Of a DNA stretch of 64,000 bases, positions 17,317 to 61,287 are shown in pieces (the stretch's first letter is position 1; each line of letters starts with the position of its first letter). This DNA is from an uncultured Clostridia bacterium. GTDB taxonomy: Bacteria > Bacillota > Clostridia > Christensenellales > Borkfalkiaceae. The stretch covers positions 16,845 to 80,844 of the forward strand of contig CANQWX010000007.1 in the NCBI GenBank assembly GCA_947627665.1. The letters run 5' to 3'. The notes below the pieces were generated by a model that was given only the letters and a program-made list of their open reading frames with translations, did no database searches and was not told the origin of the DNA. A program made the translations under genes and the position numbers.

Positions 17317-17324
17317 CGGTTATA

Positions 17325-28426: not shown

Positions 28427-28435
28427 GCCCGCTTC

Positions 28436-31799: not shown

Positions 31800-31861
31800 A
31801 ACATTATTTTAGCACTGAATTAAAAAATAATTAACATATATCATATCGGAGGTAAACTACC

Positions 31862-32155: not shown

Positions 32156-32247
32156 GTTCACGAAAAATCTTTTGCTACGCAAAATCTTTTTCCGTGAGGA
32201 AACGGGCGCTGGCGGTTTAACTTAGTTGTTCTCTCGTTCGTTTCATC
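32156..32247. repeat. Second copy of the 92 bp repeat, starting one base after the rpsP stop codon
   Basis: Aligned by eye with 31708-31799. Confidence 0.85.
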
Positions 32248-32284
32248 GGACAAGAAGTTGCAAGAGTGCAACAAATGCGGTCGC

Positions 32285-32556
32285 CCTACGTCGCCTGCGG
32301 CTCGTGCCGCGCTTGGAGAAACAGAATGGCGCGCGGGGCGGCGGAAGTGAATTCCGCCTAAGGCAAGTTTTTATGTTCACGAAAAATCTTTTGCTACGCA
32401 AAATCTTTTTCCGTGAGGAGTGGTTTTTCAACGCGCAGGAGTGGGGAACGTGTAGCGCCATTCCTAAAATGTCATTTCGACGAAGCGAAGCGCATGGAGA
32501 AATCTCAACCGCATTCGTGCCGCGCTTGGAGAATATGAAATGCGCGGGGTGAAAGA
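32285..32556. repeat. Intergenic mosaic of repeat modules between rpsP and the KH-domain gene
   Basis: It contains cgtgccgcgcttggagaaacagaa..gcgcgcggggcg (32307), a third gttcacgaaaaatc... copy (32385), gtcatttcgacgaagcgaagcgcatggagaaatctc (32469), and a second cgtgccgcgcttggagaata... (32515). Confidence 0.8.
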
Positions 32557-35055: not shown

Positions 35056-36537
35056 ATGAAAAAGCGCAAATTTTTGGTCATCCTTTTGACGATCGCAACG
35101 GCTCTTTGCATGGCGTTTGGCCTTTCGGCATGCGGGGAAAAGGAACCTGAAAGAGAGCAGTCCGACCTTTGGTCCATGGAGCGCGTGTACGCCTCGGCGC
35201 AGGAACTCGGCTTCCAAGGAACGCTTGAGGAACTCATCGCTATGTTCAAAGGCGAAAAAGGAGATACGGGCGCGCAAGGTCCCCAAGGTGAAAAGGGCGA
35301 GAAAGGTGACACGGGCGCGCAAGGTCCCCAAGGTGAAAAGGGCGAGAAAGGTGACACGGGCGCGCAAGGTCCCCAAGGTGAAAAGGGCGAGAAAGGTGAC
35401 ACGGGTGCGCAAGGTCCCCAAGGCGAAAAGGGCGAGGAAGGCGACACGGGCGCTCCCGGGAAGGACGGTGCCGACGGCGCAAACGGGAAAGATGGGATCG
35501 GCATTCGATCGATGGAAGTAGACGAGAACGGTCATTTGATCGTCACTCTGACGGACGGTACCGAGATCGACTTGGGCAAGATCACGGCGGACGCCATTTC
35601 CGAAGAAGGCACCGAGGGGCTGCAATACCAAAAGCGCAGGGATGAAGAGGGGAACGATTACGCCGCCGTTGCCGGCCTCGGCACGGCTTGGGATAGCGAT
35701 ATCGTTATTCCCGCAGAGTATCGCGGTCTGCCCGTGAAAGAGATCGGCACAAGCGCTTTTTCGGCCAATCACGATGAGCGCAATGCCCATTTAACAAGTA
35801 TCTCCATTCCGAACAGCGTAACCAAGATCGGAAGTTCTGCATTCGCGGGTTGTAGCGGGTTGACTTCGGTCGACATCCCCGACAGCGTGAACTCGATTGG
35901 AAATTCTGCATTCGCGGGTTGTAGCGGGTTGACTTCGGTCGACATCCCCGACAATGTGACCACGATCGGCGATTTGGCGTTCAATGGTTGTAGTGGGTTG
36001 ACTTCGGTCGACATCCCCGACAGCGTGATCTCGATCGGATATTCTGCATTCAATGGTTGCACCATGCTCGCTTCGGCAATGATCGGAAGCGGTAAGATCG
36101 GAGATTCTGCATTCGCGGGCTGCACAAAACTTACGCAGGTCACGGTCGGCAGCGGCGTGACCGAGATCGGATACTATGCATTTATAGGATGTTATCAGCT
36201 CGTAGAAGTTTGGGACTTTTCGGAGCTGCAAATCACGGTGGGTTCCGATAAAAACGGATATATAGGCATATACGCAAAACAAGTTTACAAAACAAACGCA
36301 AGCAGCAAACAGACAAAAACAGATGACGGATATCTCTTCTATGAGGACGGTGCAGCAAGCTTTTTGCTTGAGTATATCGGCGCATCGACCGAACTTTCTC
36401 TGCCCACAAATTCCCCTCACGGGAAAGACTATATGATCAATACTTATGCTTTTATGAAAGAAGGGCTGACTTCTGTCACGATTCCCGACAGCGTGACTGA
36501 GATCGGATATGGAGCGTTCTATGGTTGTAGTGGGTGA
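35056..36537 (+). CDS. Surface lipoprotein with a collagen-like G-X-Y tract and BspA-type leucine-rich repeats (N-terminal portion, truncated by an apparent frameshift)
   Basis: Lipobox MAFGLSAC. It has 28 consecutive G-X-Y triplets, followed by repeated IPxSVxxIGxxAFxGCSGLTSV LRR units. It ends in ...YGCSG* exactly where other units continue LTSV. Confidence 0.8.
   Translation: MKKRKFLVILLTIATALCMAFGLSACGEKEPEREQSDLWSMERVYASAQELGFQGTLEELIAMFKGEKGDTGAQGPQGEKGEKGDTGAQGPQGEKGEKGDTGAQGPQGEKGEKGDTGAQGPQGEKGEEGDTGAPGKDGADGANGKDGIGIRSMEVDENGHLIVTLTDGTEIDLGKITADAISEEGTEGLQYQKRRDEEGNDYAAVAGLGTAWDSDIVIPAEYRGLPVKEIGTSAFSANHDERNAHLTSISIPNSVTKIGSSAFAGCSGLTSVDIPDSVNSIGNSAFAGCSGLTSVDIPDNVTTIGDLAFNGCSGLTSVDIPDSVISIGYSAFNGCTMLASAMIGSGKIGDSAFAGCTKLTQVTVGSGVTEIGYYAFIGCYQLVEVWDFSELQITVGSDKNGYIGIYAKQVYKTNASSKQTKTDDGYLFYEDGAASFLLEYIGASTELSLPTNSPHGKDYMINTYAFMKEGLTSVTIPDSVTEIGYGAFYGCSG
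35251..35502 (+). repeat. Collagen-like coding repeat (45 bp unit, about 4 near-identical copies plus degenerate copies; 28 G-X-Y triplets)
   Basis: ggcgagaaaggtgacacgggcgcgcaaggtccccaaggtgaaaag repeats at 35296, 35341 and 35386. Confidence 0.9.
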
Positions 36538-37205
36538 CTTCGGTCACGATCGGCAGCGGCGTGACTGAGATCAAGGATTTAGCATTTGCAAATTGCGGCG
36601 CGATCGAGAAATTTACGGTAGAAAAAGCAAATCGAAATTACAGCAGTCAAAGTGGGGTCTTGTATCAAAAGGGAGAAATATTTTATGTCCCCCAAAAGAT
36701 CAAGGGGGCCGTGGCGATCCCCGACAGTGTGACCGAGATCCCGGATTACACGTTCCGAGGGTGCAGCGCGATCACAAGTGTTACCTTCGGCGGGAATAGC
36801 GAGCTTACCTTGATCGGAAATTGGGCGTTCCTGGGGTGCAGCGGGCTTACCTCGATCGTCATCCCGCGCAATGTGACTAAGATCGGAGATTACGCATTCG
36901 ACGGTTGCGGCGAGCTTTCAAGTGTTACGTTCGAAAGAGAAAGCAAACTGTCCTTGATCGGAAATTGGGCGTTCCGCGGTTGCAAGTTTACCTCGATCGT
37001 CATCCCGCGAAGCGTGACCATCGTAGCGGTCGGGGTGTTCGACGGTTGCGAGCAGCTCCAATATGTGTATTTTGAAAATAAGAGCGGGTGGCGTTCCGAC
37101 GCGCCCGGCGTGTACGGTCCCGTATCTTGGACCGCAGACGCAGCTGCCGCCGCAAGTTATCTGAGATCGACGCCTTATAATCAAGGAACTCTCTATCACG
37201 ACTGA
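36534..37205 (+). pseudogene. Frame-shifted continuation of the collagen-like LRR lipoprotein gene (C-terminal LRR portion)
   Basis: It begins (M)TSVTIGSGVTEI, which continues the interrupted LRR unit. The DNA reads gtagtgggTgacttcggtc, where paralogous units read gtagtgggTTgacttcggtc. No RBS is present. Confidence 0.7.
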
Positions 37206-37302
37206 CCGTGCCCTCTCCCATTTGTCATTGCCCCGCAACATGACATTTAAGAACAGCGCGCACTGATTTTATTTGTCATTTTGACCGAAGCCGCACATTC
37301 TT

Positions 37303-37457
37303 TTTTCGTCATTTCGAGCGGAACGAAGTGAAGTCGAGAAATCTCAACCCTTATTGCCCTCTCCGTGGGAGAGGGGTAGGGGTGTGGGGCGCTTGCTGTC
37401 CCTGAAAGGGAAAGTGGCGAACGCAGTGAGCCGAAAGGGTTTTCGAGAACCCCTCAG
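37303..37457. repeat. 155 bp composite repeat (left copy) upstream of the LRR gene
   Basis: ttttcgtcatttcgagcggaacgaagtgaagtcgagaaatctcaaccc...ccctctccgtgggagaggggtaggggtgtggggcg...gaacccctcag is nearly identical to 38721-38874. Confidence 0.9.
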
Positions 37458-37626
37458 GCTCGGTTAACGCCTCGCCAGCTCCCCTGCAAGGGGCGCCAAG
37501 TGCGGTAGAGATTCCTACTTCGTCGCTACGCTCCTCGTACCGTGCTTAGAGAATCAGAACTTCGCGCGGGGCGAAATGACAAAAAAACAATTGATCGGTA
37601 AAAAATAAAAAAGGAGATAGAAACTT

Positions 37627-38676
37627 ATGAAGCACAAATTTTTGGTCATCCTTTTAGCGATCGTAGCAACGCTTTGCATGTCGTTTGGCCTTTCGGCATG
37701 CGGGGGTACTTGTCTTGATTTTACATTGAGCGAAGATGGCACGGCGTATACTGTGACCGGTGTCGGCAAATGCAAAGATAAAAACCTTGTCATTCCGTCA
37801 CAACACAAAGGGAAACCCGTGACCTCGATCGGAGATCGGGCGTTTGACAGATGTAGCTGGTTGACTTCAATCACCATTCCCGACGAGGTGACCGAGATCG
37901 GAGATTATGCGTTCTTTTGTTGTAGCGGACTTACTTCAATCGATATTCCGGATAGCGTGACCGAAATCGGAGATTACGCGTTCACGGATTGTAGCGGGTT
38001 GGCTTCGGTCACGATCGGTGGCGGTGTGACCTCGATCGGAAGTTCTGCGTTCGCTGGTTGCAGTGGGTTGACTTCGGTCACCATTCCCGACAGCGTGGCC
38101 TCGATCGGGGAGTTTGCGTTCGCGTATTGTTACGGGTTGACGTCGATCACAATTCCCGACAGCGTGACCTCGATCGGCAAAGGGATGGTCTATGACTGTA
38201 GCAATTTGAAAGAAGTGCATATTTCCGATCTTGAAGCGTGGTGTGAGATCGAATTTGAAGGGTGGCTTTGTAATCAAAACTATTATTTTTTATATCTGAA
38301 TGGAGAGAAAATCACAGCATTGGAAATTCCCGACAGCGTGACCACGATCGGAGAGTGGGCGTTCGCGGGTTGTAGCGGGTTGACTTCGGTTACCATCGGT
38401 AACGGCGTGACCTCGATCGGAGAGTCGGCCTTCGCGTATTGTGGCTGGCTGACTTCGGTCACGATCGGCAGTGGCGTGACCGAGATCGGAGAGTATGCGT
38501 TCGGGGATTGCTATGCCTTGGAAGAAGTGTATTTCAAAAACCCGAACGGGTGGAAAGTGTCGGAGCATGAGAATATGTCAGACGCAGAAGCCGTTTCGGG
38601 ACTGGAAGATCCCGCAAAAGCCGCAAAATATTTGACGGATACTTATCCCTATTATGATTGGAAGCGGGAAGGGTAA
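37627..38676 (+). CDS. BspA-type leucine-rich-repeat surface lipoprotein
   Basis: Lipobox MSFGLSACGG. It has about 10 units of IPDSVTxIGxxAFxxCSGLTSVTI. An AAGGAGA RBS is present. Confidence 0.8.
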   Translation: MKHKFLVILLAIVATLCMSFGLSACGGTCLDFTLSEDGTAYTVTGVGKCKDKNLVIPSQHKGKPVTSIGDRAFDRCSWLTSITIPDEVTEIGDYAFFCCSGLTSIDIPDSVTEIGDYAFTDCSGLASVTIGGGVTSIGSSAFAGCSGLTSVTIPDSVASIGEFAFAYCYGLTSITIPDSVTSIGKGMVYDCSNLKEVHISDLEAWCEIEFEGWLCNQNYYFLYLNGEKITALEIPDSVTTIGEWAFAGCSGLTSVTIGNGVTSIGESAFAYCGWLTSVTIGSGVTEIGEYAFGDCYALEEVYFKNPNGWKVSEHENMSDAEAVSGLEDPAKAAKYLTDTYPYYDWKREG

Positions 38677-38720
38677 AGCTTGCCCACCCCCTGAATCCCC
38701 CTCCGCAGGAGGGGGTACCC

Positions 38721-38874
38721 TTTTCGTCATTTCGAGCGGAACGAAGTGAAGTCGAGAAATCTCAACCCTATTGCCCTCTCCGTGGGAAAGGGGTAGGGGT
38801 GTGGGGCGCTTGCTGTCCCTGAAAGGGAAAGTGGCGAACGCAGTGAGCCGAAAGGGTTTTCGAGAACCCCTCAG
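38721..38874. repeat. 154 bp composite repeat (right copy) downstream of the LRR gene
   Basis: It is a direct repeat of 37303-37457, with one 1-nt indel and one substitution seen by eye. Confidence 0.9.
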
Positions 38875-39322
38875 TCACTCACTACGTTCGTGACAGCTTT
38901 CTCACACGGATAGAACCCCGTGTTCGGTCACCGTTCGCGCGGCAAATGCGCTCACTCATGTCGCATTGCGCCAACGATTATCAATCGTTGGCAGAAGGCA
39001 ATGCTCCACCTGCGAGGGGCGCCAAGATGCCCACCCCCTTAGTCCGTTTTGGCGGCAGGGACCGCCAAAACCCCGTACTGCGCTACGCTTGTTCCGCCCT
39101 TAGGCAACATAGAACGTGCGGGCGGGGCGGCGAGGCCACGCCTCCTGTCGCGGCGCCCCTCACAGCCCACTGGGCTGTTGAGAGAACGGCACCGCTCCAC
39201 CCCATTGGAGGGGGTAATGATGCCGCTCCACCCCATGGGCGGGGCAAATATCCAATGACACAATTTTAGCACCTCTCCGCATACCTTGTAGTAGAGCCAT
39301 TCAAGGCTTACGGAGGTCACAA

Positions 39323-39982
39323 ATGTCATTTTTTTCCAATTTCTCATCGGACCATTGCCCCGGCACCATCACAGGCAATCCGTTGAACGGTCTTTGCGAA
39401 AAGGTGTGCATACAGGCGGAAAAAATCTTTGACGCGGGGATCATCCAAACGAGGCTCGAAAACTATCCCATCACCCTCGAAAACCCCACGCCCGCAAATC
39501 CTACATATCCGCTTACATTCATATCGGCGCGCTCCCTCGCTTCCGAGGGAACGGTGACAAATCTCACCGTGGACCAGCAAACGGACGGCCAGTGCGCCCG
39601 CGTGCAGTGCACGATCACGGTGCCCATCGAGGTCGTCTACCTCGACGCGACCGGCGCAGAGGGCAAGGCGACAAGCGAGATCGTCCTCAACGAGGATGTG
39701 CTCATGTATGTGCCGCCCGCATCCGTCATGCCGTTTACGGTGACGGCGATCGCTTCCTGCGTTTCCCCCGAGGGAACGTTCAACGCCTCTACAGGCTCCT
39801 TCAACATCAGCGCCTGCCTCACGCTGATCCTAAAGGTCGCCATGCAGGTGGAACTTCTCGTCCCCAGCTACGGCTATTGCGCCATCCCGCCCGCACAGGA
39901 GTACTCGCAGGAAGTCTGCTCGGGCTTCTTCGAGCTGCCGCTCTATCCGCAGGGCAGGTCGTGCTGCAAAAAGAACAATTGA
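39323..39982 (+). CDS. Hypothetical protein, Cys-containing and predicted beta-rich (no family recognised)
   Basis: 219 aa with a GGAGG RBS 6 nt upstream and a good terminator downstream. Composition is coding-like, with no signal peptide. Confidence 0.6.
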   Translation: MSFFSNFSSDHCPGTITGNPLNGLCEKVCIQAEKIFDAGIIQTRLENYPITLENPTPANPTYPLTFISARSLASEGTVTNLTVDQQTDGQCARVQCTITVPIEVVYLDATGAEGKATSEIVLNEDVLMYVPPASVMPFTVTAIASCVSPEGTFNASTGSFNISACLTLILKVAMQVELLVPSYGYCAIPPAQEYSQEVCSGFFELPLYPQGRSCCKKNN

Positions 39983-40006
39983 ACAAACGGAACCGGACCA
40001 AAATGC

Positions 40007-40040
40007 CAAGAAGCCGACTTTGGGTCGGCTTCTTCCTTTT
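40007..40040 (+). terminator. Intrinsic terminator after the 219-aa gene (caagaagccgac-tttgg-gtcggcttcttc plus T-run)
   Basis: Stem and U-tract were read directly. Confidence 0.7.
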
Positions 40041-40078
40041 CTCTCGGAAATGCGCTGTTTGGAATGTGGTAGGCGAGA

Positions 40079-40128
40079 TTTGAAACGCGGCGGGGGTTGC
40101 CTTTTGGGCAACCCCCGCCGCGTTTCAA
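40079..40128. repeat. Perfect 23 bp-stem hairpin tttgaaacgcggcgggggttgcc-tttt-ggcaacccccgccgcgtttcaaa
   Basis: Read directly; function unknown. Confidence 0.8.
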
Positions 40129-40243
40129 AACAGAACTGAAAGGGGGGACAGGTCCCACCCCCTTGATCCCCCTCCGATGGAGGGGGTAAAATTAGGGACC
40201 CCCGCCTGGCGCTGCGGCGTCGCCCCCTCAGGAAGGGGGCGGG

Positions 40244-42340
40244 TCACTTTTTCAAACTCAGATAGATCATGAGGACGGAGATGTCGGCGGGGGAGACCCC
40301 CGAGATGCGCTCCGCCTGTCCCAAATTCAAGGGGCGGACGCGGTTGAGCTTCTCGCGCGCTTCGAGGCGCAGCCCCCCGATCTGTTCATAATCGAGATCG
40401 GGTGGGAGAGGCTTTTCCTCCATTTTTTTCGCCTTCTCCATCTCCTTTTCGCTCGCCTTCAAGTAGCCCTCGTACTTGATCTCCGTTTCGGCGGAGAGAA
40501 GAATGTCGTAGGGGACAGAAGAGAGGGGAAAAGGAAGAGATTTCTCGGCTTCGCCTACGGCTCCGCTCGAAATGACAGAAGAAAGGGCGTTCGCTCCGCT
40601 ACTGCGCCTGCGGCTTGTGCCGCGCTTAGAGAAACAGAACTGCGCGCGGGGCGAAATGACAGAAGGGTGAGCGTTTGCTTCGGGTGAAGGATTGGGGGAT
40701 GACGCCCTTTCTCCCGCTTCGTTAGGGACAGCGAGGGAGGGGAACGTATTGCAAATTTCGCGGATGGAAATGCCGCGGCGGATGAGGTCGCTGTATGTCA
40801 CGCCCGCGGTGAGCGGCGGGAATCCGTGCCGCTGTACGAGCGCGTCCGCCGTTTTCGTGTCTGCACGCGTGTTCAAAAGCGCAAGCGTTTCCCCGCGCAG
40901 CTTTTTCCGCGCCAAAAACCGCCGATAGCGCCTTGTATCCACCAGACCGCATGCGCGCCCGATCTCGGTCAGGCGCATGTCGGCGTTGTCCTGCCGCAGC
41001 GTCAGGCGGAATTCCGCGCGCGAAGTCATCATGCGGTATGGCTCGTCCGTGCCCTTCGTCACCAGATCGTCGATGAGCACCCCGATGTACGCCTGATCGC
41101 GGCGCAGAATGAGCGGCGGTTTGCCGCGGAGCTTCAAAGAGGCGTTGAGGCCCGCCATCAGCCCCTGCGCGGCCGCCTCCTCATAGCCGCTCGTGCCGTT
41201 GATCTGCCCCGCCGTATACAGCCCCTCTACCGTTTTGGATTCAAGGGTGGGAAGAACGTCGAGGGTGTCGATGCAATCGTATTCGATCGCATAAGCGTAG
41301 CGCACGATCTCGCAATGTTCCAGTCCCTCGACCGTGCGGTACATCTCCTTTTGCAGGTCGTGGGGGAGAGAGGTCGACAGCCCCTGCACATACACTTCCG
41401 TCGTGTCCGCGCCCTCGGGTTCCAAAAAGAGCTGGTGCCGCTCCTTGTCGCGGAAACGCACCACCTTGGTTTCGATGGAGGGACAGTAGCGCGGCCCCGT
41501 GGAGGAGATCTGCCCGTTGTAGAGGGGGGCGCGGCCGAGATTGTTCAAAATGAGCGCATGTGTGCGTTCGTTGGTATAGGCGAGATAGCAGGGCGTTTGC
41601 GCCTTGGGTGCATGGTTGTGCAGGAAAGAGAAGGGGTATACGTCCTCGCCGTCCTGCTTCTCCAGCTTGCCGAAGTCGACGGTCCTGCCGTCGATGCGGG
41701 CGGGCGTGCCCGTCTTGAAACGGCGCACTTTATAGCCGAGCGAGAGGAGCGATTTTGTAAGACGGGTCGCATTTTGGAAGCCGTTGGGGCCGCTCGCGGT
41801 GACGAGTTCCCCCGTGATCGTGTCCGAATTGAGATACACGCCCGTCGCCACGACGACGGCGCGGCACCGGAAAACGCCGCCGTAAGTCGTCTTGACGGCG
41901 GAAACGCGCGGGCGGCTCTCCCGCTCTCCGCAGGGCGCCGGCTCGGTCAAAATTTCGGCGGCCTCCGCCTGTACGATGCGCAGATTTTTGGTGTGTTCGA
42001 GCACCTGCTTCATGCGGCGGTGGTATTTGTTTTTGTCCACCTGCGCGCGGAGGGACTGCACCGCGGCGCCCTTGCCCGCGTTCAGCATCCGCACTTGCAG
42101 GGCGCATTCGTCCGCCGTGACGCCCATTTGTCCGCCGAGCGCGTCGATCTCGCGCACCAAATGCCCCTTCGCCGTTCCGCCGGCGGAGGGGTTGCAGGGC
42201 ATGAAGCCGATACTGTCCAAATTTAAGGTCATGAGCACCGTCGAAAGTCCCGTGCGGGCGAGCGCGAGCGCCGCTTCCGCGCCCGCATGTCCCGCGCCGA
42301 TGACGACGGCGTCGCAGACCTGTTCGCAAAATTCTTGCAT
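40244..42340 (-). CDS. mnmG: tRNA uridine 5-carboxymethylaminomethyl modification enzyme MnmG (GidA), carrying a ~71-aa repeat-derived insertion
   Basis: The N-terminus is DAVVIGAGHAGAEAALALAR. GTPARI, QINGTSGYEEAAAQGL and the C-terminal EIKYEGY...GQAERISGVSPADISVLMIYL are present. The start was set at ATG 42340 (MQEF...). The track ORF start at 42610 overlaps dnaA. Confidence 0.93.
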   Translation of the reverse strand: MQEFCEQVCDAVVIGAGHAGAEAALALARTGLSTVLMTLNLDSIGFMPCNPSAGGTAKGHLVREIDALGGQMGVTADECALQVRMLNAGKGAAVQSLRAQVDKNKYHRRMKQVLEHTKNLRIVQAEAAEILTEPAPCGERESRPRVSAVKTTYGGVFRCRAVVVATGVYLNSDTITGELVTASGPNGFQNATRLTKSLLSLGYKVRRFKTGTPARIDGRTVDFGKLEKQDGEDVYPFSFLHNHAPKAQTPCYLAYTNERTHALILNNLGRAPLYNGQISSTGPRYCPSIETKVVRFRDKERHQLFLEPEGADTTEVYVQGLSTSLPHDLQKEMYRTVEGLEHCEIVRYAYAIEYDCIDTLDVLPTLESKTVEGLYTAGQINGTSGYEEAAAQGLMAGLNASLKLRGKPPLILRRDQAYIGVLIDDLVTKGTDEPYRMMTSRAEFRLTLRQDNADMRLTEIGRACGLVDTRRYRRFLARKKLRGETLALLNTRADTKTADALVQRHGFPPLTAGVTYSDLIRRGISIREICNTFPSLAVPNEAGERASSPNPSPEANAHPSVISPRAQFCFSKRGTSRRRSSGANALSSVISSGAVGEAEKSLPFPLSSVPYDILLSAETEIKYEGYLKASEKEMEKAKKMEEKPLPPDLDYEQIGGLRLEAREKLNRVRPLNLGQAERISGVSPADISVLMIYLSLKK
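40511..40723 (-). repeat. 213 bp composite repeat element inserted in frame within mnmG
   Basis: In the mnmG sense it contains ...ttctgtcatttcgCCCCGCGCGCAGTTCTGTTTCTCTAAGCGCGGCAC... and ...tcttctgtcatttcgagcggagccgtaggcgaagccgagaaatctc. These are the same modules found in intergenic regions at 3210, 32300, 37310 and 37535. GGGAC lies at both borders. Confidence 0.8.
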
Positions 42341-42444
42341 AAGATGTTTTTGAGTAGGGAGAACACCCCTTTCGTCTTGCCACCGTTGACGGCAAGACAC
42401 CCACCCCTCAAGGGGTGGGCAAGTGTGCGGTGAGAGAGGGGCAG

Positions 42445-43794
<1,350 letters not shown>

Positions 43795-43936
43795 TTTTTC
43801 CCTCTCAAACGCTTTGTTTTTTTTGCGGAATTTGCTATAATGAGGTTGTTCCGCCTCCGCGCTGCGGAGCCGCTGCGTCTATTTAAGATTATAATATAAA
43901 ACCGCGCAAAAAGAAAGTATTTTTCGGGTAAATTCG

Positions 43937-45019
43937 GTGATAATCAAAAAATTGGAGCTGCAAAACTTCAGAAACTACGAGAAAGAGACCTTTGTCTTCG
44001 GCGACGGGGTCAATGTGCTCGTGGGCAGAAACGCGCAGGGCAAAACCAATTGCGCCGAAGCCGTATTTTACCTTTGCACGGGCGCGTCGCTGCGCATCCG
44101 CCACGATAAGCAGCTCATCCGCAAGGGAGCGGAGTGCGCCCGCCTCTCCGCCGAAACGGAGTGCCGCTACGGCAGGATCGTCCTCGAAGCGGACATCTAT
44201 GAAAACAAGCGGGAACTCCGTCTGAACGGCGTGAAGGTCGCCCGCGCCGTAGACTTTTTGGGGAACATGAAGAGCGTGTTCTTTTCTCCCGGCGAGCTGC
44301 GCATCGTGCAGGACGGTCCCGACGAGCGGCGGCGGTTTTTGAATCTCTCCATCTCCCAAACCTCGAAAAACTACGCCTCGGCGCTCTTGCGATACAACAA
44401 GATCCTCGACCAAAGGAACAATTTGCTCAAAGAGAGGGACGTTTCCCTCATCTTCGAAACGCTCCCCGTCTGGGACGAGCAGCTCGCGCGCTATGCCGCC
44501 GTGCTCATCCGCCACAGGAGGGAATATCTCGGGCGGCTGTCGCCCTTCGCCGCCGAGGCGCATGCGTTTCTCACGGACGGTGCGGAAAAGCTCGAGCTTG
44601 GCTTCGAAGAGAACTATCCGTCCGAGGAGGGGGAGATCGCCGAAAAATTGCAGCGGGAACTGAAAAACGTCTATGAACGGGACGTGCGGCTCGGCTTTAC
44701 CACCGTTGGCCCGCACCGCGACGACATCCGCGTTTCGATCGACGGGAACGACGCGCGCGGCTTCGCCTCGCAGGGACAGACGCGGACGGCGGCGCTCTCG
44801 ATGAAGCTCGCGGAGCTTGAGATCTTCAAACAGCTCTCGGGCGAGGCGCCCGTCCTCATTCTGGATGACGTCATGAGCGAGCTTGACCTTCCCCGCCGCA
44901 AAAAGTTGCTCCTGCGCACCGAGGGGGTGCAGTGCATCCTCACCTGCACACATGCCGAGCGGCTGCTCTACGGAAAGGAATGCAAAAAGATCAGGATCAG
45001 CGGAGGAAAGATCGTATGA
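43937..45019 (+). CDS. recF: DNA replication and repair protein RecF
   Basis: GTG start. MIIKKLELQNFRNYE...GRNAQGKTN has the Walker A, with GPHRDD and the C-terminal LILDDVMSELD. Confidence 0.93.
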   Translation: MIIKKLELQNFRNYEKETFVFGDGVNVLVGRNAQGKTNCAEAVFYLCTGASLRIRHDKQLIRKGAECARLSAETECRYGRIVLEADIYENKRELRLNGVKVARAVDFLGNMKSVFFSPGELRIVQDGPDERRRFLNLSISQTSKNYASALLRYNKILDQRNNLLKERDVSLIFETLPVWDEQLARYAAVLIRHRREYLGRLSPFAAEAHAFLTDGAEKLELGFEENYPSEEGEIAEKLQRELKNVYERDVRLGFTTVGPHRDDIRVSIDGNDARGFASQGQTRTAALSMKLAELEIFKQLSGEAPVLILDDVMSELDLPRRKKLLLRTEGVQCILTCTHAERLLYGKECKKIRISGGKIV

Positions 45020-45924
45020 TGAGAGCAGACCTGCATCTTCACACCCTCTGCTCGGACGGCGCCTATCCGCCCGCGGAGGTCGCCCGCAGGTGCAAGGCGG
45101 CGGGGGTCGCTCTCTTTTCCCTCACCGACCACGACAACATGAGCGGGCTGAACGAGGGGGCGGAGGCGGCGAAAAACTTGGGGCTTCGCTTTGTGCGGGG
45201 CATCGAGGTGTCCGCCTATCTCGGAGCGACAAAGGTCCACATTCTCGGCTACGGCTGCGGGGAGGGGGACGCCTATACCCGTTTTCTTCACGCGCGGGAA
45301 GAGGGCGCGCGCGCCCGCGCGCGGGACGCCGTCGAAAAAGCGAACGCCTTGCTTTCCCTCGACGTCACCATGGAGGAGGTGGAGAAGTTCCACCCCCGCA
45401 AAGATTCCCCCCTCCACAGCATGCACATTCTGGACGCGTTTGTAAACCGCCTCGGCGGGGACAGGGACCGGCTCTACCGCGAGCTGTTCGTCCCCGGCGC
45501 GCCCGCGTTTTCGGAGCTTGGGCGGCCTCTGCCCGAGGAAGCCGTGCGCGCCATACACGAAATGGGCGGCGTTGCCGTGCTCGCCCATCCCGTACAGATC
45601 CTTGTGCTTCCGAAGGAAGTTTCGGAGCGTTTCCGCCTTCTTTCCCGCGCGGAGAGAGAGGAGGTCAAGCGCACCTATGCAAAAGACCGCAACGCGCTCA
45701 TGGAAAGACTTGCCGCGGCGGGGCTTGACGGCATAGAATGTTATCACCCGACGCATACTTTAAGTGATACGGAGGAGTTTCTCGCGTTCGCACAGGCGCA
45801 CGGGCTGTTTGTGACGGGCGGGTCGGACTTTCATTCGGACGACGGTCCGAGAAGGGTGGGCTACCCCGTCTTTGACGGGACCCGCGCCGGGGAATTGCTC
45901 CTTTCGCTGAAGGGAAGCGTATGA
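45016..45924 (+). CDS. PHP (polymerase/histidinol-phosphatase) domain metal-dependent phosphoesterase
   Basis: MMRADLHLHTLCSDG...LTDHDNMSG...GIEVS...AHP is the PHP motif series. The ATG overlaps the recF stop. Confidence 0.8.
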   Translation: MMRADLHLHTLCSDGAYPPAEVARRCKAAGVALFSLTDHDNMSGLNEGAEAAKNLGLRFVRGIEVSAYLGATKVHILGYGCGEGDAYTRFLHAREEGARARARDAVEKANALLSLDVTMEEVEKFHPRKDSPLHSMHILDAFVNRLGGDRDRLYRELFVPGAPAFSELGRPLPEEAVRAIHEMGGVAVLAHPVQILVLPKEVSERFRLLSRAEREEVKRTYAKDRNALMERLAAAGLDGIECYHPTHTLSDTEEFLAFAQAHGLFVTGGSDFHSDDGPRRVGYPVFDGTRAGELLLSLKGSV

Positions 45925-47219
45925 TGACAGAGAAAACGGCGGCGCTCCTCCTTGCGGGGAGCTTTTTTTTCGCCTTCGGAAGAGTGAAACAAGACGTGAC
46001 GATCGGCGGCGTGCAGGTCGGCGGAATGACGTATGCCGAGGCGGAAAACGCAATACGGTCGCAGTTTTGCGGCGATCTGCCCCCCGTGACCGTGCATACG
46101 CCGTCGGGTGATGTGCGCTTCCGGGAGGGGTTTACGGTAAAAGACGACATCGCCCGCCTCGTGCGGAGGGCAAAGAGGGGAGAAACGCTCTCCGTTTCCT
46201 ACCGCCGCGAATGGGCGGACGCGGAGGACGCGCTCTTTTCCCTTTGCGCCCGCAACGCGCGGGAGGCGAAAGACGCGGAAATGACCTTCTCGGCGGAGGG
46301 TTTTCGCTATACGCATGAAGTTTTGGGCGTTTCCTGCGACTACCAAAAGCTGCTTGCGGACGTGCAGCGCGTTTTGCACGATGGGGGAGAGGTCACGCTC
46401 GCCACGCACCGCTATGCGCCCGCCGTCACCGAGGAGCTATTGCGCGCCCGCACGCGGGAACTTTCCTCCTTCCGTACTTATTTCGACGGTTCCAATGCGC
46501 CGCGGCGGCACAACATCGCCCTTGCCGCCTCCCGCATCGCGGGGACTGTCTTAGCGCCGCAGGAGGTCTTTTCCTTCAATGCCGTGGTCGGAAAGCGCAC
46601 CACGGAGAACGGCTTCCGCTCCGCGGCGGTGATCCTGGACGGCGAATTCGTGCCCGGCGTGGGCGGCGGGGTGTGCCAGACGAGCACCACTCTCTTCGGC
46701 GCGGCGCTCAGGGCGGGCATGGAGATCGTGGAGAGCCGTCCGCATTCCCTCTCGGTGGGATATGTCCCCCCGTCCGAGGACGCCATGGTGTCCGAGGCGA
46801 GCGACCTCAAATTCCGAAACCCGTATCCCTATCCCGTCTACATCCTTGCCGAAATGGGGCAGGGGAGCGTGCGTTTCCGCCTCTTCGGGATGCCCGACGG
46901 CAGGCGGTACGAGGTGGAGAGCAGAGTGCTCGGGCGCGTTCCGCCCCCGCCGCCCGAGGAAGTGGAGGGCGAGGAGGACGCCGTCCTGCGCAATGGGAAG
47001 GAGGGGATCGTGAGCGAGAGCTATCTCGTCGTCTACGGCAGGGACGGCGCGCTCTTTTCGCGCACCCGCATCCGCCGCGACAGCTATGCGCCCGTGCGCG
47101 GGAAAATATCGGTAAAACGGGAAGAGGAGCTGCCCGCGGAGGCGCAAGACGGACCCGACGCCCCGCAGAACGGCGGGGAAATGCAAAAAAATTCGGAAAA
47201 CGGGCGCAAAATCGGTTGA
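45921..47219 (+). CDS. VanW-family protein
   Basis: It has an N-terminal TM segment and the VanW core FSFNAVVGKRTTENGF...GGGVCQTSTTLFGAAL. Confidence 0.75.
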   Translation: MMTEKTAALLLAGSFFFAFGRVKQDVTIGGVQVGGMTYAEAENAIRSQFCGDLPPVTVHTPSGDVRFREGFTVKDDIARLVRRAKRGETLSVSYRREWADAEDALFSLCARNAREAKDAEMTFSAEGFRYTHEVLGVSCDYQKLLADVQRVLHDGGEVTLATHRYAPAVTEELLRARTRELSSFRTYFDGSNAPRRHNIALAASRIAGTVLAPQEVFSFNAVVGKRTTENGFRSAAVILDGEFVPGVGGGVCQTSTTLFGAALRAGMEIVESRPHSLSVGYVPPSEDAMVSEASDLKFRNPYPYPVYILAEMGQGSVRFRLFGMPDGRRYEVESRVLGRVPPPPPEEVEGEEDAVLRNGKEGIVSESYLVVYGRDGALFSRTRIRRDSYAPVRGKISVKREEELPAEAQDGPDAPQNGGEMQKNSENGRKIG

Positions 47220-47244
47220 TTTTTCACGCGGCTTCCGTTATAAT
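47216..47244 (+). promoter_or_regulatory. Sigma-70-type promoter for rplS (TTGATT-17 bp-TATAAT)
   Basis: Hexamers and spacing were read directly. Confidence 0.55.
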
Positions 47245-47249
47245 GTTCA

Positions 47250-47322
47250 AGTGACTTTAGACGTTCCTCTGCCGCAGCGGCAACATCAGACGCAAATCCA
47301 AGAACGGGAATGAACGTTTTTT
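47250..47322 (+). promoter_or_regulatory. Possible rplS leader/attenuator (structured region closed by ACGTTC...GAACGT followed by T6); candidate L19-leader-type element
   Basis: A stem plus U-tract lies between the promoter and the rplS RBS. The class assignment rests on position alone and was not verified against a covariance model. Confidence 0.3.
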
Positions 47323-47345
47323 CAGAACATACGGAGGTAAAGTCC

Positions 47346-47690
47346 ATGAAAGGTTTGATCGAAGCGATCGAAAAGGAGGGGCTGAAAGAAAACGTGCCCC
47401 AATTCAATGTAGGCGACACCGTGAAGGTGGGCTACCGCATCATCGAAGGCGGCAAGGAGAGGATCCAGAACTTCGAAGGCGTGGTCATCGCCAAAAAGCA
47501 CGGCGGCATCCGCGAAACTTTCACCGTCCGCCGCCTTTCCTTCGGCGTGGGCGTGGAGCGCTGCTTCCCCCTGCATTCCCCGAAGGTGGCTTACGTCAAT
47601 GTCGTGCGCGCAGGCAAGGTGAGAAGGGCAAAGCTCTACTACCTCAGAGGCCGCACCGGCAAGGCTGCCAAGATCAAGGAATTGAAGTGA
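47346..47690 (+). CDS. rplS: 50S ribosomal protein L19
   Basis: [58 protein letters not shown] is canonical L19. A GGAGG RBS precedes ATG 47346. Confidence 0.96.
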
Positions 47691-47696
47691 CCTGCA

Positions 47697-47727
47697 AAGG
47701 AGCGCTCTTCGGGAGCGCTCCTTTTTT
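47697..47727 (+). terminator. Intrinsic terminator after rplS (aaggagcgctc-ttcg-gagcgctcctt plus T-run)
   Basis: Read directly. Confidence 0.8.
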
Positions 47728-47839
47728 GCGCTTTTGCGGAATGCGGCGCTAAACTTTTTTTGAAAAAGCCCGCGAAAATCGTTTACAATTCCCGTTGTTT
47801 CGGTTAGAATAGTATGCGACGATATAATAAGGAAACAAA

Positions 47840-49906
47840 ATGATGAAGAAAACAAACATCTGGAACAGAATGTCGGCATGGCTTTTGGCTTTCCTCATTC
47901 TCGCATTCGCCTTCCTCGTCCTCGGTCTGGGGACTCTCGGCTCCGTCCTCTCTACGGGCGACGCCTACGCCCTCTCCGCCAAGCGGGATACCGACGGGAA
48001 AGAGCCTTGCATCATGCTCCAAATCTCCGAACCCGACGACGCGACCTATTTGGACGCAAACGGGGAAGAGCAACCGCGCGATCTCTATATCAAAGAGATC
48101 TACTGCAACATCGGCGCCATTTACGGCGAATACGGCGAAGTCACAACGCTGCGGCTCGGCCGCTCCACCACCGCGGGAGGCACCTTCTATAACTACGCGG
48201 ATATCAAGTTCGCCAACCGTTACGAAGAGGTCGCAGAGGACGGAAAATCGAGCAATCCCATCACCGCGTCCCTCTACAATTGGGCGAAATACACCGTCAC
48301 GTCCACAGACGGCTGGCGGATCAGGACCTATCCCTTCTACAAGATCACCATCCCGGATAGCGGCAGCAGCATGCTCATCAACGAGATCGTGTTCGTCGCC
48401 AACGACAGAGATCTCACCGCGGAGGGGGAACATAAGCCCGTCGTTCTTCGTCCCACCGTGTATTCGGACGGCACGAACGGCACCCTTCTGCCCTACGACG
48501 CGGAGAAGGGCGAAACGTTGCAGACGGCGATCGACCGCGCGAGTGCGATCGTGGACAGCCCCCGCCTTCCCAACCTTGCGGAAAGCTCTTTCTTCCGCTT
48601 CGGGGAGGAGGAGATCGATTCGCTTTTGACCGTTTCCGAGATACGGCAGGCAAATTCCTATATCCAGAACGCCGTCTACCACATCGATACGGATTACGGC
48701 GCTTTGGGCAACGGCCTCTTGACGCTCGGAACGTATATCGGCGGAATGAGTCCCTTCGGGCTTCGCCTCATGCCCTTCCTTGCCTCCTTCGGCGTGCTCG
48801 TGCTCGGCTTCCTCTTCGTGCGCAAGCTGACGGGCAGTGACAAAGCGGGCTTTGTGTTCGCTGTGCTCTATGCGCTTTGCGGCGTGAGCATCAGCCTCGG
48901 ACACCTCGGCACGCCCCTCATGTTCGGTGTATTCTTCTTCACCGCGGCGCTCTACTTCGTCACGGTGTTCTTCCGTGACGGCATGAAGAAGGCGGACTTC
49001 CTCTCCGCGGTGCCGCCCATGCTTGCGGGCCTGTTTTCCGCGGCGGCGGTCTGTGTGAACAGCGCCTTCCTCATCCCCGTGCTCGGCATCGTGGGACTGT
49101 TCGTGCTCGGGCTTGTGCGCCAGCTGCGTTTGACCCGTGCGGCGCTCGACGCCGCCATCGGAGAGGTGGAAGCGGACGAGAGCGCGGGCGGGACCCCTCA
49201 TACCCAGGAGGGGACTTCCGGGCCGAGAAAACGGCTTGCCGTCGCCCTCAAGGAGCACCGCTTCAAGGGAAGCGTTTCCGCTTGCGTTTTCTTCGCCTTC
49301 CTCGTATTCGGGTTCCTGGTCATCTCCATGCTCGCGGCGCTGCCCATGTACTTCCCGAAGTTTTACGGGGACCCCGCGGCTCCTTCCAACGATCCCTTCT
49401 ACTTCATTGCGAAGACATTCTGCGGCGGCTTTACGGGAGCGAAGGATACGTTTGCGCCGCAGTCGGTTTGGAGTCCCTTCTATATTCTGTTCAAAGGCAC
49501 GGGAGTGCCCGCAGGCGTGACGGCAGCGGGTTCGCTCATTGCGGCCGCCGCCCTCCTTTCGGGGCTTGCCGGCGCCGTGTTCGCGCTTCTTTCCCTCGTG
49601 CGCAAGAAGGGAAGCGAGGACTTCCCGAAGGAACTTGTTACCGTGCTCATTCCGCTCGCCGGCATCGTGCTCGGGCTTGTGACCGCCGCGTTCGCCAAAG
49701 ACGGGCTTGCCTTTATGACGCTCGCTTACGTCTGCCTGTTTGCGCTCGGCGCAAAGGGCGCTTGCGTGGAGGACGGACCTTACGCGAAGATCGTCCGCAT
49801 CCTCTCGATCGTCTGTCTTTTCTTGCTCGCAGTGTGCTTCGGCCTCTTTGCCGTGTTCACCTTCTCCATTCCCACTTCGGGCTTTATGGCGGGGCTTTGG
49901 GCATAA
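47840..49906 (+). CDS. Polytopic membrane protein, GT-C/PMT(GT39)-like glycosyltransferase fold, with an N-terminal extracytoplasmic jelly-roll-like domain
   Basis: An N-terminal TM segment is followed by a ~250 aa ectodomain and about 10 TM segments. The segment ...YGALGNGLLTLGTYIGGMSPFGLRLMPFLASFGVLVLGFLFVRKLTGS... resembles the first loop and TM region of bacterial PMT-family enzymes. Function was not verified. Confidence 0.45.
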   Translation: MMKKTNIWNRMSAWLLAFLILAFAFLVLGLGTLGSVLSTGDAYALSAKRDTDGKEPCIMLQISEPDDATYLDANGEEQPRDLYIKEIYCNIGAIYGEYGEVTTLRLGRSTTAGGTFYNYADIKFANRYEEVAEDGKSSNPITASLYNWAKYTVTSTDGWRIRTYPFYKITIPDSGSSMLINEIVFVANDRDLTAEGEHKPVVLRPTVYSDGTNGTLLPYDAEKGETLQTAIDRASAIVDSPRLPNLAESSFFRFGEEEIDSLLTVSEIRQANSYIQNAVYHIDTDYGALGNGLLTLGTYIGGMSPFGLRLMPFLASFGVLVLGFLFVRKLTGSDKAGFVFAVLYALCGVSISLGHLGTPLMFGVFFFTAALYFVTVFFRDGMKKADFLSAVPPMLAGLFSAAAVCVNSAFLIPVLGIVGLFVLGLVRQLRLTRAALDAAIGEVEADESAGGTPHTQEGTSGPRKRLAVALKEHRFKGSVSACVFFAFLVFGFLVISMLAALPMYFPKFYGDPAAPSNDPFYFIAKTFCGGFTGAKDTFAPQSVWSPFYILFKGTGVPAGVTAAGSLIAAAALLSGLAGAVFALLSLVRKKGSEDFPKELVTVLIPLAGIVLGLVTAAFAKDGLAFMTLAYVCLFALGAKGACVEDGPYAKIVRILSIVCLFLLAVCFGLFAVFTFSIPTSGFMAGLWA

Positions 49907-49942
49907 GGACGGAACCTACGCGGGATCTGCAAGGGGAAAAAT

Positions 49943-51463
49943 ATGATCGCAAAAATCATCTGTTATGCGCTGTCCGGGCTGGACGGGATCCCCGTCGAGG
50001 TGGAAACGGACATCAACCGTGGCGTGCCCTCCTACGACATGGTCGGGCTGCCCGATACCGCGGTGAAGGAGTCCAAGGAACGGGTGCGCTCGGCGCTCAA
50101 AAACAGCGGGCTTCTCTTCCCCATGAACAGGATCACCATCAATTTCGCGCCCGCCGATCTCAAAAAGGAGGGAGCTTCCTTCGACCTCGCCATTGCGGTC
50201 AGCCTGCTCAAGGCGAGCGAACAGCTCATCGGCGCGGATGTGGCGGACACCGTCTTTTTGGGCGAACTCGCCCTCAACGGGGACCTTCGTCCGATCAGCG
50301 GGTTGCTGCCCATCCTCATTTCGGCAAAGGGGCACGGCTTTACGCGGTTCATCATTCCCGCCGCCAACGCCAAAGAGGCGCGTTTTTTGGGCGGAGCGGA
50401 GATCTATCCCGCGGAAAATTTGCTCGGCGTGGTCAAGCATCTCGTCGGGCTTGAGCCGATCGAGCCGCTCGAAACGGCGGAATTCACCGCCGAAAAGTGG
50501 CAGTGCTCTTCGGCAGACCTCAAATATGTCAAGGGCCAGCCGATGGCGCGGCGGGCGATCGAGATCGCCGTGGCGGGCGGGCACAACCTGCTCATGGTAG
50601 GCCCTCCCGGAACGGGCAAGACCATGCTCGCGCGGTGCATTCCCACCATCATGCCCGACCTCAGCTTCCAAGAGGCGCTCGAGATCACCAAGATCCACTC
50701 GGTGGCGGGTATTTTGGGAGAGGAGGGCATCGTGACCGAACGTCCCTTCCGTACCCCGCACCACACGGCGACGACCGTGTCGATGTGCGGCGGCGGGAAC
50801 CGCGTCGTCCACCCCGGGGAGATCTCTCTTGCCCACGGCGGCGTGCTCTTTCTGGACGAGCTACCCGAATATAAGCGTTCCACGCTCGAGGCGCTCCGCC
50901 AGCCCCTCGAGGACGGGAAAATTTCCGTGTCCCGCGCAGGCGGGACCTTTACCTATCCCTCCCGCTTCATGCTCTGCGCGAGCATGAACCCCTGCCCTTG
51001 CGGGAACTACGGCTCCGCCAATCTCGTGTGCACTTGCACACCCGCGGAGATCAGGCGGTACCGCAGGAAGATCTCGGGGCCGCTGCTCGACAGGATCGAC
51101 TTGCAGGTGGAGGTGGACAACATCTCTTACGACGAGCTCACCTCGGGCGAAAAACAGGAAGGCTCCAAGGAAGTGAAGGAGCGGGTGAACATGGCGCGGA
51201 AGATCCAGCGCAACCGCTTCTCCGAATATAAACTCAATACTAATGCGGAGATGGGGGAGAGGGAGATCGAGGAGTTCTGCAACCTCGACGCCGAGAGCGA
51301 AAAGATCTTGCGCAGCGCCTTCGAACGCATGAAGCTTTCCGCGCGGGCGCGGGCGCGCATCATCAAGGTGTCCCGCACCATCGCCGACCTCGACGGATGC
51401 GAAAATATCCGTCCCAAACATGTTTTCGAGGCGGTTTCTTACCGTCTTGAGGATAAATTCTGA
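49943..51463 (+). CDS. comM: YifB/ComM-family Mg-chelatase-like AAA+ ATPase
   Basis: It has an N-terminal Lon-protease-like domain, Walker A GPPGTGKTM, LFLDELPE, and a C-terminal ChlI-type region. Confidence 0.92.
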   Translation: MIAKIICYALSGLDGIPVEVETDINRGVPSYDMVGLPDTAVKESKERVRSALKNSGLLFPMNRITINFAPADLKKEGASFDLAIAVSLLKASEQLIGADVADTVFLGELALNGDLRPISGLLPILISAKGHGFTRFIIPAANAKEARFLGGAEIYPAENLLGVVKHLVGLEPIEPLETAEFTAEKWQCSSADLKYVKGQPMARRAIEIAVAGGHNLLMVGPPGTGKTMLARCIPTIMPDLSFQEALEITKIHSVAGILGEEGIVTERPFRTPHHTATTVSMCGGGNRVVHPGEISLAHGGVLFLDELPEYKRSTLEALRQPLEDGKISVSRAGGTFTYPSRFMLCASMNPCPCGNYGSANLVCTCTPAEIRRYRRKISGPLLDRIDLQVEVDNISYDELTSGEKQEGSKEVKERVNMARKIQRNRFSEYKLNTNAEMGEREIEEFCNLDAESEKILRSAFERMKLSARARARIIKVSRTIADLDGCENIRPKHVFEAVSYRLEDKF

Positions 51464-61218: not shown

Positions 61219-61287
61219 AAAAGAGGAAAGAGTTCCCGCAACAGGCTTGCTTTTTGCGGGAAAGCGTGATACAATAACGATAAATAA

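Follow-up and report, generated by a model that had tools for sequence, protein, structure and literature searches.

In-frame arrays of REP-like repeat units within MnmG in a clade of uncultured gut Clostridia

Repetitive extragenic palindromic (REP) elements of the CGTC-tagged super-family, in which the tag often reads TGTC and may also be CCTC, have stems of 8-9 bp starting with AT, loops of 4-5 nt and no associated transposase, and they include dRS3 of Neisseria and the Rickettsia palindromic elements (RPEs) RPE-4 and RPE-6 (Di Nocera et al. 2013, PMC3733652). They have been reported from five phyla, Bacillota not among them, and are known inside open reading frames (ORFs), in part as clusters encoding 43-82 aa; truA, truB, and tRNA synthetase genes are among the hosts, and different REPs occupy about the same recB site in two Xanthomonas species (PMC3733652). 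RPE-1 to RPE-10 are small palindromic repeats (Ogata et al. 2000 as summarised in PMC10969869 and PMC3733652), and in-frame fusions of RPEs and of transposable elements of the miniature inverted-repeat kind (MITEs) were treated as established in a 2024 review (PMC10969869). Here we describe a new example of this already known phenomenon of in-frame REP and RPE clusters, which is best known from Rickettsia. It was found in a stretch of 64,000 nt (the window) from the metagenome-assembled genome (MAG) of an uncultured Clostridia bacterium of the Borkfalkiaceae (GCA_947627665.1, contig CANQWX010000007.1, positions 16,845 to 80,844), in which an array of (T/C)GTC-tagged repeat units lies in frame within the mnmG (gidA) gene. 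Differing arrays occupy the same codon in seven related species, and we consider it probable that one ancestral in-frame insertion of a REP cluster into a loop of MnmG was followed by a turnover of units that was filtered by the reading frame.

In the window, mnmG occupies positions 40244-42340 of the minus strand (2,097 bp), from the start ATG at 42340 to the stop at 40244, and encodes 698 aa, one fewer than the approximately 699 aa given in an initial sequence-only reading of this DNA. A longer ORF of 788 aa in the ORF list begins at an upstream GTG, the ATG at 42340 being the real start. Pfam analysis revealed the GIDA domain (PF01134) at residues 10-407 (8.9e-153), GIDA_C_1st (PF21680) at residues 470-540, and SAM_GIDA_C (PF13932) at residues 635-691 (6e-26), i.e., the full-length MnmG set of a GIDA domain binding flavin adenine dinucleotide and C-terminal helical domains, and solved MnmG structures in the PDB matched the protein at ~1e-167. 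The alignment with E. coli MnmG stopped at query residue 534 and restarted at residue 616, leaving 81 residues of the window protein between two E. coli positions that are only 13 residues apart. The PDB chain indices carry tags of 20-26 residues; in the untagged chain 8zu0, query residue 534 corresponds to native residue 527, which places the site at native E. coli residues ~527-541 (547-561 when the tags are counted). The nearest insert-free orthologues read TF-GILKNVP-HDILLSAETEIKYEGY (HDILL) at this site, while the window protein reads TF followed by 77 residues and YDILLSAETEIKYEGY (YDILL). The extra segment thus spans 40511-40741 (231 nt, 77 codons) in place of seven codons (GILKNVP), which lengthens the gene by a net 70 codons (210 nt). 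The coordinates proposed at first, 40511-40729 with 213 bp and about 71 residues, came close to this. Adjoining mnmG is a conserved ORF of 219 aa (39323-39982, plus strand) with no Pfam match, which is syntenic in L081 and L082 (L-numbers denote the other MAG and metagenome loci compared) and has 86-99% DNA identity across the clade described below.

The right two-thirds of the insert consist of units that recur at 86-96% identity elsewhere in the window, in nine or more intergenic clusters (3211-3299, 7947-7992, 17330-17640, 28433-28600, 31700-32550, 37263-37583, 38681-38874, 40154-40191, and 58140-58290), found by motif scans and by reading the sequence. Positions 40558-40584 matched 3215-3241 and 3260-3286 (96% over 27 nt, E 2e-7), 40590-40654 matched 28503-28567 (86% over 65 nt), 40605-40653 matched 32292-32340 (92%, E 2e-13), and 40624-40661 matched 37544-37581 (95%, E 1.5e-11), with weaker module copies at 7958-7984, 37308-37345, and 38726-38763. 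Among these are the copies that the sequence-only reading had pointed out near 28505, 32307, and 37540 and near 3210, 7957, and 37310, and its proposal that repeat units of intergenic type lie in frame inside mnmG is borne out. The gene is the sole intragenic site in the window and the other clusters all lie between called ORFs, an intergenic status that depends on ORF calls made with a crude codon-usage score, by which mnmG was itself assigned to the wrong strand.

Two units can be delimited in this part of the insert (Table 1). Units of type A are also found in intergenic positions at 3211-3256, 3256-3299, 7947-7992, and 38714-38769 and at L001:13124 and L002:8506. Unit B matches 28503-28567, 32286-32340, and 37519-37583, and its stem reads CCGCCC/GGGCGG in L001:9805 and L003:11861. 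The left third (~40665-40741), which encodes AVPNEAGERASSPNPSPEANAH, matched no intergenic sequence of the window or of the fetched loci in a blastn-short search, so the earlier description of the insert as built of intergenic modules stands for the right two-thirds only; the left third loosely resembles the ...TGTC...GAAGGGGTGTC module of L002, L003, L082, and window 42341-42444. GGGAC does occur at both borders, as had been pointed out. The left copy lies inside GCTGTCCCT, which also opens a recurring intergenic module, and the right copy consists of the two ancestral codons for Val-Pro; a proven target-site duplication was therefore rejected, and microhomology between module and target would explain the repetition equally well.

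An insert at exactly this site was present in seven related sequences, all from MAG species of uncultured gut Clostridia with Candidatus Gallimonas as the nearest named genus. The net gain in codons was 70 in the window, 53 in L081, 73 in L001, 120 in L002, 88 in L003, 52 in L005, and 42 in L082, and all seven segments (49-127 residues) have a length that is a multiple of three and contain no stop codon. The right junction, PLS[SA][VL]PYD, is closely similar in all of them, and the left junction, FPSLAVP, is common to most (four to six), the left flank of L082 looking more ancestral (FIKAVP vs GILKNVP). Between the junctions, L003 carries three perfect tandem units of 27 nt (SVISTPAPS), L001 and L002 the unit-B hairpin, L002, L003, and L082 a CCCTCCCCC...GGGGGAGGG hairpin module (PSPTCGGGVGEGAP), and L005 a module that is found in the dnaA-mnmG spacer of the window. 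The five best database matches were MnmG proteins of 670-711 aa; the others had 618-623 aa, except for three of 638-641 aa, two of which were aligned and have their extra length at the termini. Relatives free of the repeats lack a homologous segment. A protein search with the 76-aa insert peptide gave no match at E<=0.01, a kind of search by which in-frame copies elsewhere cannot be surveyed.

In neighbour-joining trees based on 1,848 ungapped nucleotide columns, the seven insert-bearers were monophyletic in 98% of 500 codon bootstraps and the insert-free L004 was their sister in 100%. The sister has neither the insert nor any unit heads or tails within 22 kb. Each locus of the clade contains 2-13 copies of the 9-mer unit head GTCATTTCG, which is absent from L004 (22 kb) and L006, and the dnaA-mnmG spacer, packed with repeats in the clade, is 25 nt long and repeat-free in L004. 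When the other long ORFs of the clade loci were scanned for units, only mnmG was positive; a 9-mer match in the L082 VanW gene goes with no gain in length and was attributed to chance.

At the right junction, the insert-free L004 reads AAGAACGTCCCCCACGAT and has CGTC exactly at the site, and this raises the question of a hot spot, i.e., of several independent insertions at the CGTC of the loop instead of one insertion and turnover in place. Such an origin would fit the unit content, which is almost wholly different between some species (L005 or L082 vs the window), as well as the more ancestral-looking left flank of L082. A second, independent insertion into another mnmG loop was also found: L021, whose MnmG has 649 aa and is ~75-78% identical, carries a separate in-frame insert of 24 aa (NDAPSRGSQDPACPPLDGVSRSDGRGV; L021:10388-10537, codons ~130-180) that shares 87% identity over 77 nt with a repeat copy just 3' of the gene (12013-12089), the intragenic copy having a 3-nt deletion that disrupts the second hairpin. 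However, the monophyly of the insert-bearers, the similar right junction (PLS[SA][VL]P) in all seven and the left junction shared by four to six argue for a single origin, which is also the more economical reading, and we regard the hot spot as unlikely.

The reading frame of mnmG has been maintained throughout. Among the insert-bearers, the 86 codons after the insert showed a ratio of nonsynonymous to synonymous substitution rates (dN/dS) of 0.02-0.10 at dS values of 0.33-0.89 (a range that leaves out the near-identical pair of the window and L081, dS 0.04), which is the same as that obtained against the insert-free sister; the insert is therefore taken to be read through. The head-to-head spacing of units was a multiple of three in all ten cases inside mnmG vs 2 of 14 outside. 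Judged from the sequences, the spacing and the low dN/dS are as would be expected for a translated, functional protein and would be hard to square with a pseudogene or with truncation or excision. By all appearances the gene remains functional, and the early remark that the frame stays open and the C-terminal part is retained agrees with the selection seen downstream. For any large insertion in a gene it is a general possibility that the segment is removed before function, as a small intron or intein, or that the gene copy is a decaying pseudogene, but in this case we find either extremely hard to credit. Searches of Rfam gave no match on the insert or the modules, either at the gathering threshold over the whole window or at E<=1 over 37200-40800 (where sub-threshold noise appeared at 40005-40214), and the segments, at 49-127 aa and with unit contents unrelated to one another, lack the size and constancy of an intein or ribozyme. 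An intein or self-splicing intron was rejected on these grounds, and a pseudogene was rejected in view of the intact gene and the strong purifying selection that acts on either side of the insert. The promoter and terminator scan gave no hit in the insert.

The DNA of mnmG was identical (100%) on L083 and L084, contigs from the assemblies ERZ27249088 and ERZ27249309, which match the window at 100% over the recF-like gene, dnaA, and mnmG. A one-off misassembly is therefore unlikely, and the chimeric assembly named as a risk in the sequence-only reading does not apply as far as tested. Both contigs end ~20-90 nt past the mnmG stop, at the downstream hairpin-repeat cluster (40154-40191), indicating that the repeats fragment short-read assemblies while the insert itself was assembled reproducibly. 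An artefact in which a repeat-induced chimera or a collapsed repeat put intergenic sequence into mnmG seems very improbable in the face of the same sequence in two further assemblies, six more MAGs with in-frame inserts at the same codon, insert lengths that are all multiples of three and stop-free, and flanks that are continuous and conserved. What speaks for it is that the data are all short-read metagenome assemblies and that repeats break or mis-join these, as the ends of L083 and L084 just past mnmG and the mosaic look of L081 illustrate.

The GIDA_C_1st match ends at profile position 76 of 96, directly before the insert, and in an AlphaFold2 model, helices at residues 526-532 and 611-622 flank a coil at residues 533-610 with a predicted local distance difference test (pLDDT) score of ~24. 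Therefore, the insert is placed in a loop before the last helix of the GIDA_C_1st subdomain. The model is poor overall (mean pLDDT 59) and was used only for the flanking helices and the unstructured insert; for this reason the low confidence within the insert is not specific, and the segment may be disordered. The pooled composition of the seven inserts is 21% Ser, 14% Pro, 12% Ala, 10% Val, and 7% Gly. According to cryo-EM structures of the E. coli MnmE-MnmG complex, MnmG residues 554-629 are too flexible to model in the free protein and become ordered upon MnmE binding (PMC12397908). The insert site lies 13-27 residues upstream of this MnmE-binding arm, which is inside the downstream segment. 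This position, together with the retention of the insert in all seven species over dS ~0.3-0.9, would suit a tunable flexible tether that alters the reach of the C-terminal arm to MnmE or tRNA and is kept by selection. We think this improbable, since length and sequence are unconstrained (net +42-120 codons, with unit types swapped), the composition is merely what the repeat encodes in one frame, all other relatives (~619-623 aa) manage without the insert, and such insertions are treated as tolerated passengers in the literature (PMC3733652). The array would be neutral.

The alleles of the window and L081 have 97-99% DNA identity over mnmG, and yet the 51-nt core of the unit-B hairpin is missing from L081. 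The turnover of units is therefore fast relative to point substitution. According to the reading that we favour, a (T/C)GTC-tagged REP-like cluster would have inserted once into the short loop of the MnmG C-terminal helical domain, in an ancestor shared by the members of a small clade of uncultured gut Clostridia, the target being codons ...AAC GTC CCC... as in the insert-free sister. The inserted units share the vocabulary of the intergenic mosaic clusters of these genomes, and the array would since have gained, lost and exchanged whole units, most likely by slipped-strand or unequal recombination between identical heads of 12-20 nt (TCTTCTGTCATTTCG) and also through exchange with intergenic copies. 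Selection on the enzyme would have retained only stop-free versions with a length that is a multiple of three. The array would be transcribed and translated as a Ser/Pro/Ala/Val-rich segment of 49-127 residues, modelled as coil, and would lengthen the connection to the final MnmG helices, including the MnmE-binding arm.

The core of the units reads (T/C)GTC-ATTTCGA(G/C)...(C/G)GAGAAAT-CT. In 36 units of the clade, a pyrimidine-rich leader is followed by (T/C)GTC (TGTC in 33 and CGTC in 3), ATTTCGA(G/C)C, a centre of 8-79 nt (20-72 nt in the mnmG copies), (C/G)GAGAAAT, and CT(C/T). The eighth stem position is a G-C pair in 26 units and a C-G pair in 10, none being unpaired. The three bases after GAGAAATC are TCT (12 units), TCA (12), TCC (6), TCG (3), TTA (2), and CCA (1), which with the preceding C give the CT(C/T) tail, as in metagenome units. 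A GTAG-type tagging of the CCCCCTCC module was rejected, as its flanking tetranucleotide varies (GTAG, GTAA, GTAC).

The unit GTCATTTCGASC...SGAGAAATCT was found on at least 120 metagenome contigs (L085-L204) with a GC content of 33-65% and on 39 IMG/VR contigs (L205-L243), some of which have 3-5 copies. This class of element therefore spans phyla and is also present on predicted viral contigs. The search pattern allowed any G or C at both covarying positions and did not require complementarity; among the matches listed, 145 of 146 metagenome units were complementary at the covarying pair, and the tag was TGTC in 109 and CGTC in 33 of them. In its commonest minimal form, TGTC ATTTC GA GCGAAGC GA GAAAT CT, the stem has five Watson-Crick pairs (ATTTC/GAAAT) and two G·A mismatches below a GCGAAGC cap (as DNA, d(TGTCATTTCGAGCGAAGCGAGAAATCT)). 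The GCGAAGC heptamer is an unusually stable DNA mini-hairpin. Loops in the minimal metagenome forms are mostly GAAG, GCAG, and GTAG. An intact ispG/GcpE ORF (L085:2423-3856, Pfam 1.5e-119) on an unrelated metagenome contig of 61% GC holds one TGTC unit in frame (CHFERSEAESRNL) and is perhaps a further housekeeping gene with such an insertion.

It is well supported that the units work like REPs of the CGTC type. Both have a terminal (T/C)GTC, an AT-initiated stem and, in the minimal form, GAAG/GCAG/GTAG loops, are mostly intergenic and often clustered, form clusters within ORFs, and have no known dedicated transposase. CGTC REPs are present in many, mainly intergenic copies per genome, and the window contains at least nine intergenic clusters in 64 kb. 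In contrast to the palindromic stem of 8-9 bp in CGTC REPs, the units here form an imperfect palindrome of five Watson-Crick pairs, a tandem G·A and one or two covarying pairs; the CCA tail is replaced by CT(C/T) (CCA in 1 of 36), and the loop of 4-5 nt is expanded to centres of 8-79 nt. The units have the tag and the AT-initiated stem of the super-family, its loop only in the minimal form, and not its CCA tail, and they may be members of it.

With the RPEs, to which they are linked solely through the CGTC tag described in PMC3733652, the units share the presence of otherwise intergenic palindromic repeats in frame within functional housekeeping genes, and the analogy drawn in the sequence-only reading is apt in that the core unit has the (T/C)GTC tag and AT-initiated stem of the super-family of RPE-4, RPE-6, and dRS3 (PMC3733652). 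The peptide encoded by RPEs is a passenger that is reported to be compatible with the fold and function of the host protein, and tRNA-modification genes are known as hosts of RPEs (truB), as here mnmG. On the other hand, RPE-1 consists of one element of ~100-150 bp that encodes one conserved peptide, whereas here a mosaic array is built from units of 27-84 nt of several types; RPEs belong to obligate intracellular Rickettsia and the present arrays to a gut Clostridia lineage known only from MAGs. Unlike RPEs, the array at the one orthologous site is different in each species, and only mnmG is affected in the ~160 kb examined.

The bacterial interspersed mosaic elements (BIMEs) of E. coli and the neisserial intergenic mosaic elements (NIMEs) are mosaic repeat clusters described as extragenic. 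They resemble the present arrays in that short module types occur in variable order and orientation, TCTGTCATTTCG here bracketing variable cassettes, but in mnmG the mosaic is probably translated. Such combinations were seen at 28433-28600, 37263-37583, 38681-38874, and 58140-58290 and in the seven mnmG arrays. For the mosaic clusters of Neisseria, a link to dRS3 has been described (PMC3733652). Intragenic MITEs (ERIC, the Coxiella QMITE, and cyanobacterial elements; PMC10969869, PMC5896051, PMC3184786) likewise create in-frame fusions with a repeat-borne ORF. However, they have terminal inverted repeats of 15-30 bp and clear target-site duplications, while the arms here are only 8-9 nt and imperfect; GTCCC stands at both borders, but its left copy lies in GCTGTCCCT, with which a recurring intergenic module also opens. 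No paper retrieved in the literature search ties such elements to mnmG/gidA, and none of the top-ranked papers on intragenic REPs in Clostridia describes them, in line with the sequence-only reading, whose author was aware of no such description for this lineage.

Several points weigh against the reading of one insertion followed by turnover within a translated loop. About one third of the insert is without an intergenic counterpart. Nearest-neighbour folding did not favour a stable hairpin in unit A (z = +0.9 to +1.1), and the energies of units A, B and the left third were no better than those of shuffled sequences, the CCCCCTCC hairpin module alone standing out, weakly (z = -1.9); the proposed hairpin therefore rests on covariation, which may reflect only two subfamilies. 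The AlphaFold2 model shows further long low-confidence stretches besides the insert, and the case for translation is an evolutionary one. All genomes are MAGs, and the search for a mobilising enzyme covered a few ORFs only. Compared with window 39218-52207, L081 is mosaic, with 83% identity in the recF-like gene and 85% in dnaA, but 97-99% in mnmG and 99.5% in the downstream 219-aa ORF, and the switch falls at a five-unit repeat array with a 44-nt period in the dnaA-mnmG spacer. This could be due to inter-species recombination at repeats or to a chimeric contig joined at the repeat array.

Other repeats and genes were noted in the window. The intergenic gap at 17316-17739 is filled by six head-to-tail copies (17330-17640, period 53-54 nt) of a CCCCCTCC-ATCG-GGAGGGGG hairpin and a AAGGGGGTGGG module. 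A 92-nt repeat (GTTCACGAAAGATCTTTTGCTTCGCAAAATCTTTTTCCGTGAAG...) occurs at 31708-31799, 32156-32247, and 32375-32466, the first two copies being 90% identical, and flanks a small gene (31862-32155) that, from synteny with L082, probably encodes ribosomal protein S16. The region 35203-35472 / 35730-38570 comprises two genes for LRR_5/BspA-like surface proteins with 69-nt periodic repeats, split by a repeat mosaic, and a collagen-like 45-nt tandem repeat (GEKGEKGDTGAQGPQ). A MazF/PemK-type toxin gene is located at 22555-22935 (minus strand, Pfam 2.5e-35). The only Rfam match at the gathering threshold in the whole window was a flavin mononucleotide (FMN) riboswitch at 61287-61409 (plus strand, 94 bits, E 2e-20).

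Table 1. The mnmG insert, its parts and related repeat clusters in the window.
Feature	Position	Strand	Description and evidence
Extra segment	40511-40741	-	PSLAVPNEAGER...LPFPLSSVP, 77 codons vs 7 in insert-free orthologues; alignments
Left third including left junction GCTGTCCCT	40664-40741	-	blastn-short: only mnmG copies in L081 and L001
Unit A	40537-40579	-	TCTGTC-ATTTCGAGC...GCCGAGAAAT-CTC, centre 20-21 nt, encodes SVISSGAVGEAEKSL; head/tail motif matches
Unit B, 84 nt	40580-40663	-	Head TCTGTCATTTCG, CCGCGC...GCGCGG hairpin, then GAGCGAACGC; encodes SVISPRAQFCFSKRGTSRRRSSGANALS
Right junction	40511-40536	-	TTCCTTTTCCCCTCTCTTCTGTCCCC (LPFPLSSVP)
Two identical 45-nt unit A copies, short form	3211-3299	+	Intergenic
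Unit A, short form	7947-7992	+	Intergenic
Composite: CCCCCTCC hairpin module and unit B	28433-28600	+	Intergenic
Composite: two unit-B hairpins in opposite orientation and one unit A	32286-32549		Intergenic
Mosaic: unit A, CCCTCTCC hairpin module, CTGTCCCT module, unit B (reverse)	37263-37583		Intergenic
Mosaic, 98% copy of 37303-37457	38681-38874	+	Intergenic
CCCCCTCC hairpin module	40154-40191	-	Immediately 3' of the mnmG stop
dnaA-mnmG spacer with CTTGCCCACCCCTTGAGGGGTGGGTGTC...GAAAGGGGTGT module	42341-42444	-	Module type translated inside L005 mnmG (predicted)
Mosaic: three hairpin modules and unit-A tail	58140-58290		Intergenic

A net addition of 42-120 residues is tolerated in the MnmG loop that precedes the last helices, and this is of use where the MnmE-MnmG complex is to be engineered or tagged. 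For the quality control of MAGs, it is relevant that inserts of this kind can pass for misassemblies or frameshifts and that the same units also produce spurious 'hypothetical proteins'. More tentatively, and with considerable doubt, TGTC-ATTTC-GA-GCGAAGC-GA-GAAAT-CT could be a cross-phylum, still-active REP of the CGTC type that inserts next to (C/T)GTC, of which the mnmG arrays and the pair of the window and L081 would be a natural record. If this were true, the mechanism by which CGTC-type REPs are mobilised and their arrays grow could be worked out from the mnmG array series, and the presence of the unit on 39 viral contigs would hint at a route of spread. What the locus mainly adds is a series of in-frame arrays that differ among seven species at a single codon, along with the cross-phylum distribution of the core unit; it provides a dated allele series for studying the growth and shrinkage of arrays under a reading-frame filter, and it adds gut Clostridia (Bacillota) known only from MAGs to the lineages in which repeats of the REP/RPE type have colonised housekeeping genes in frame.

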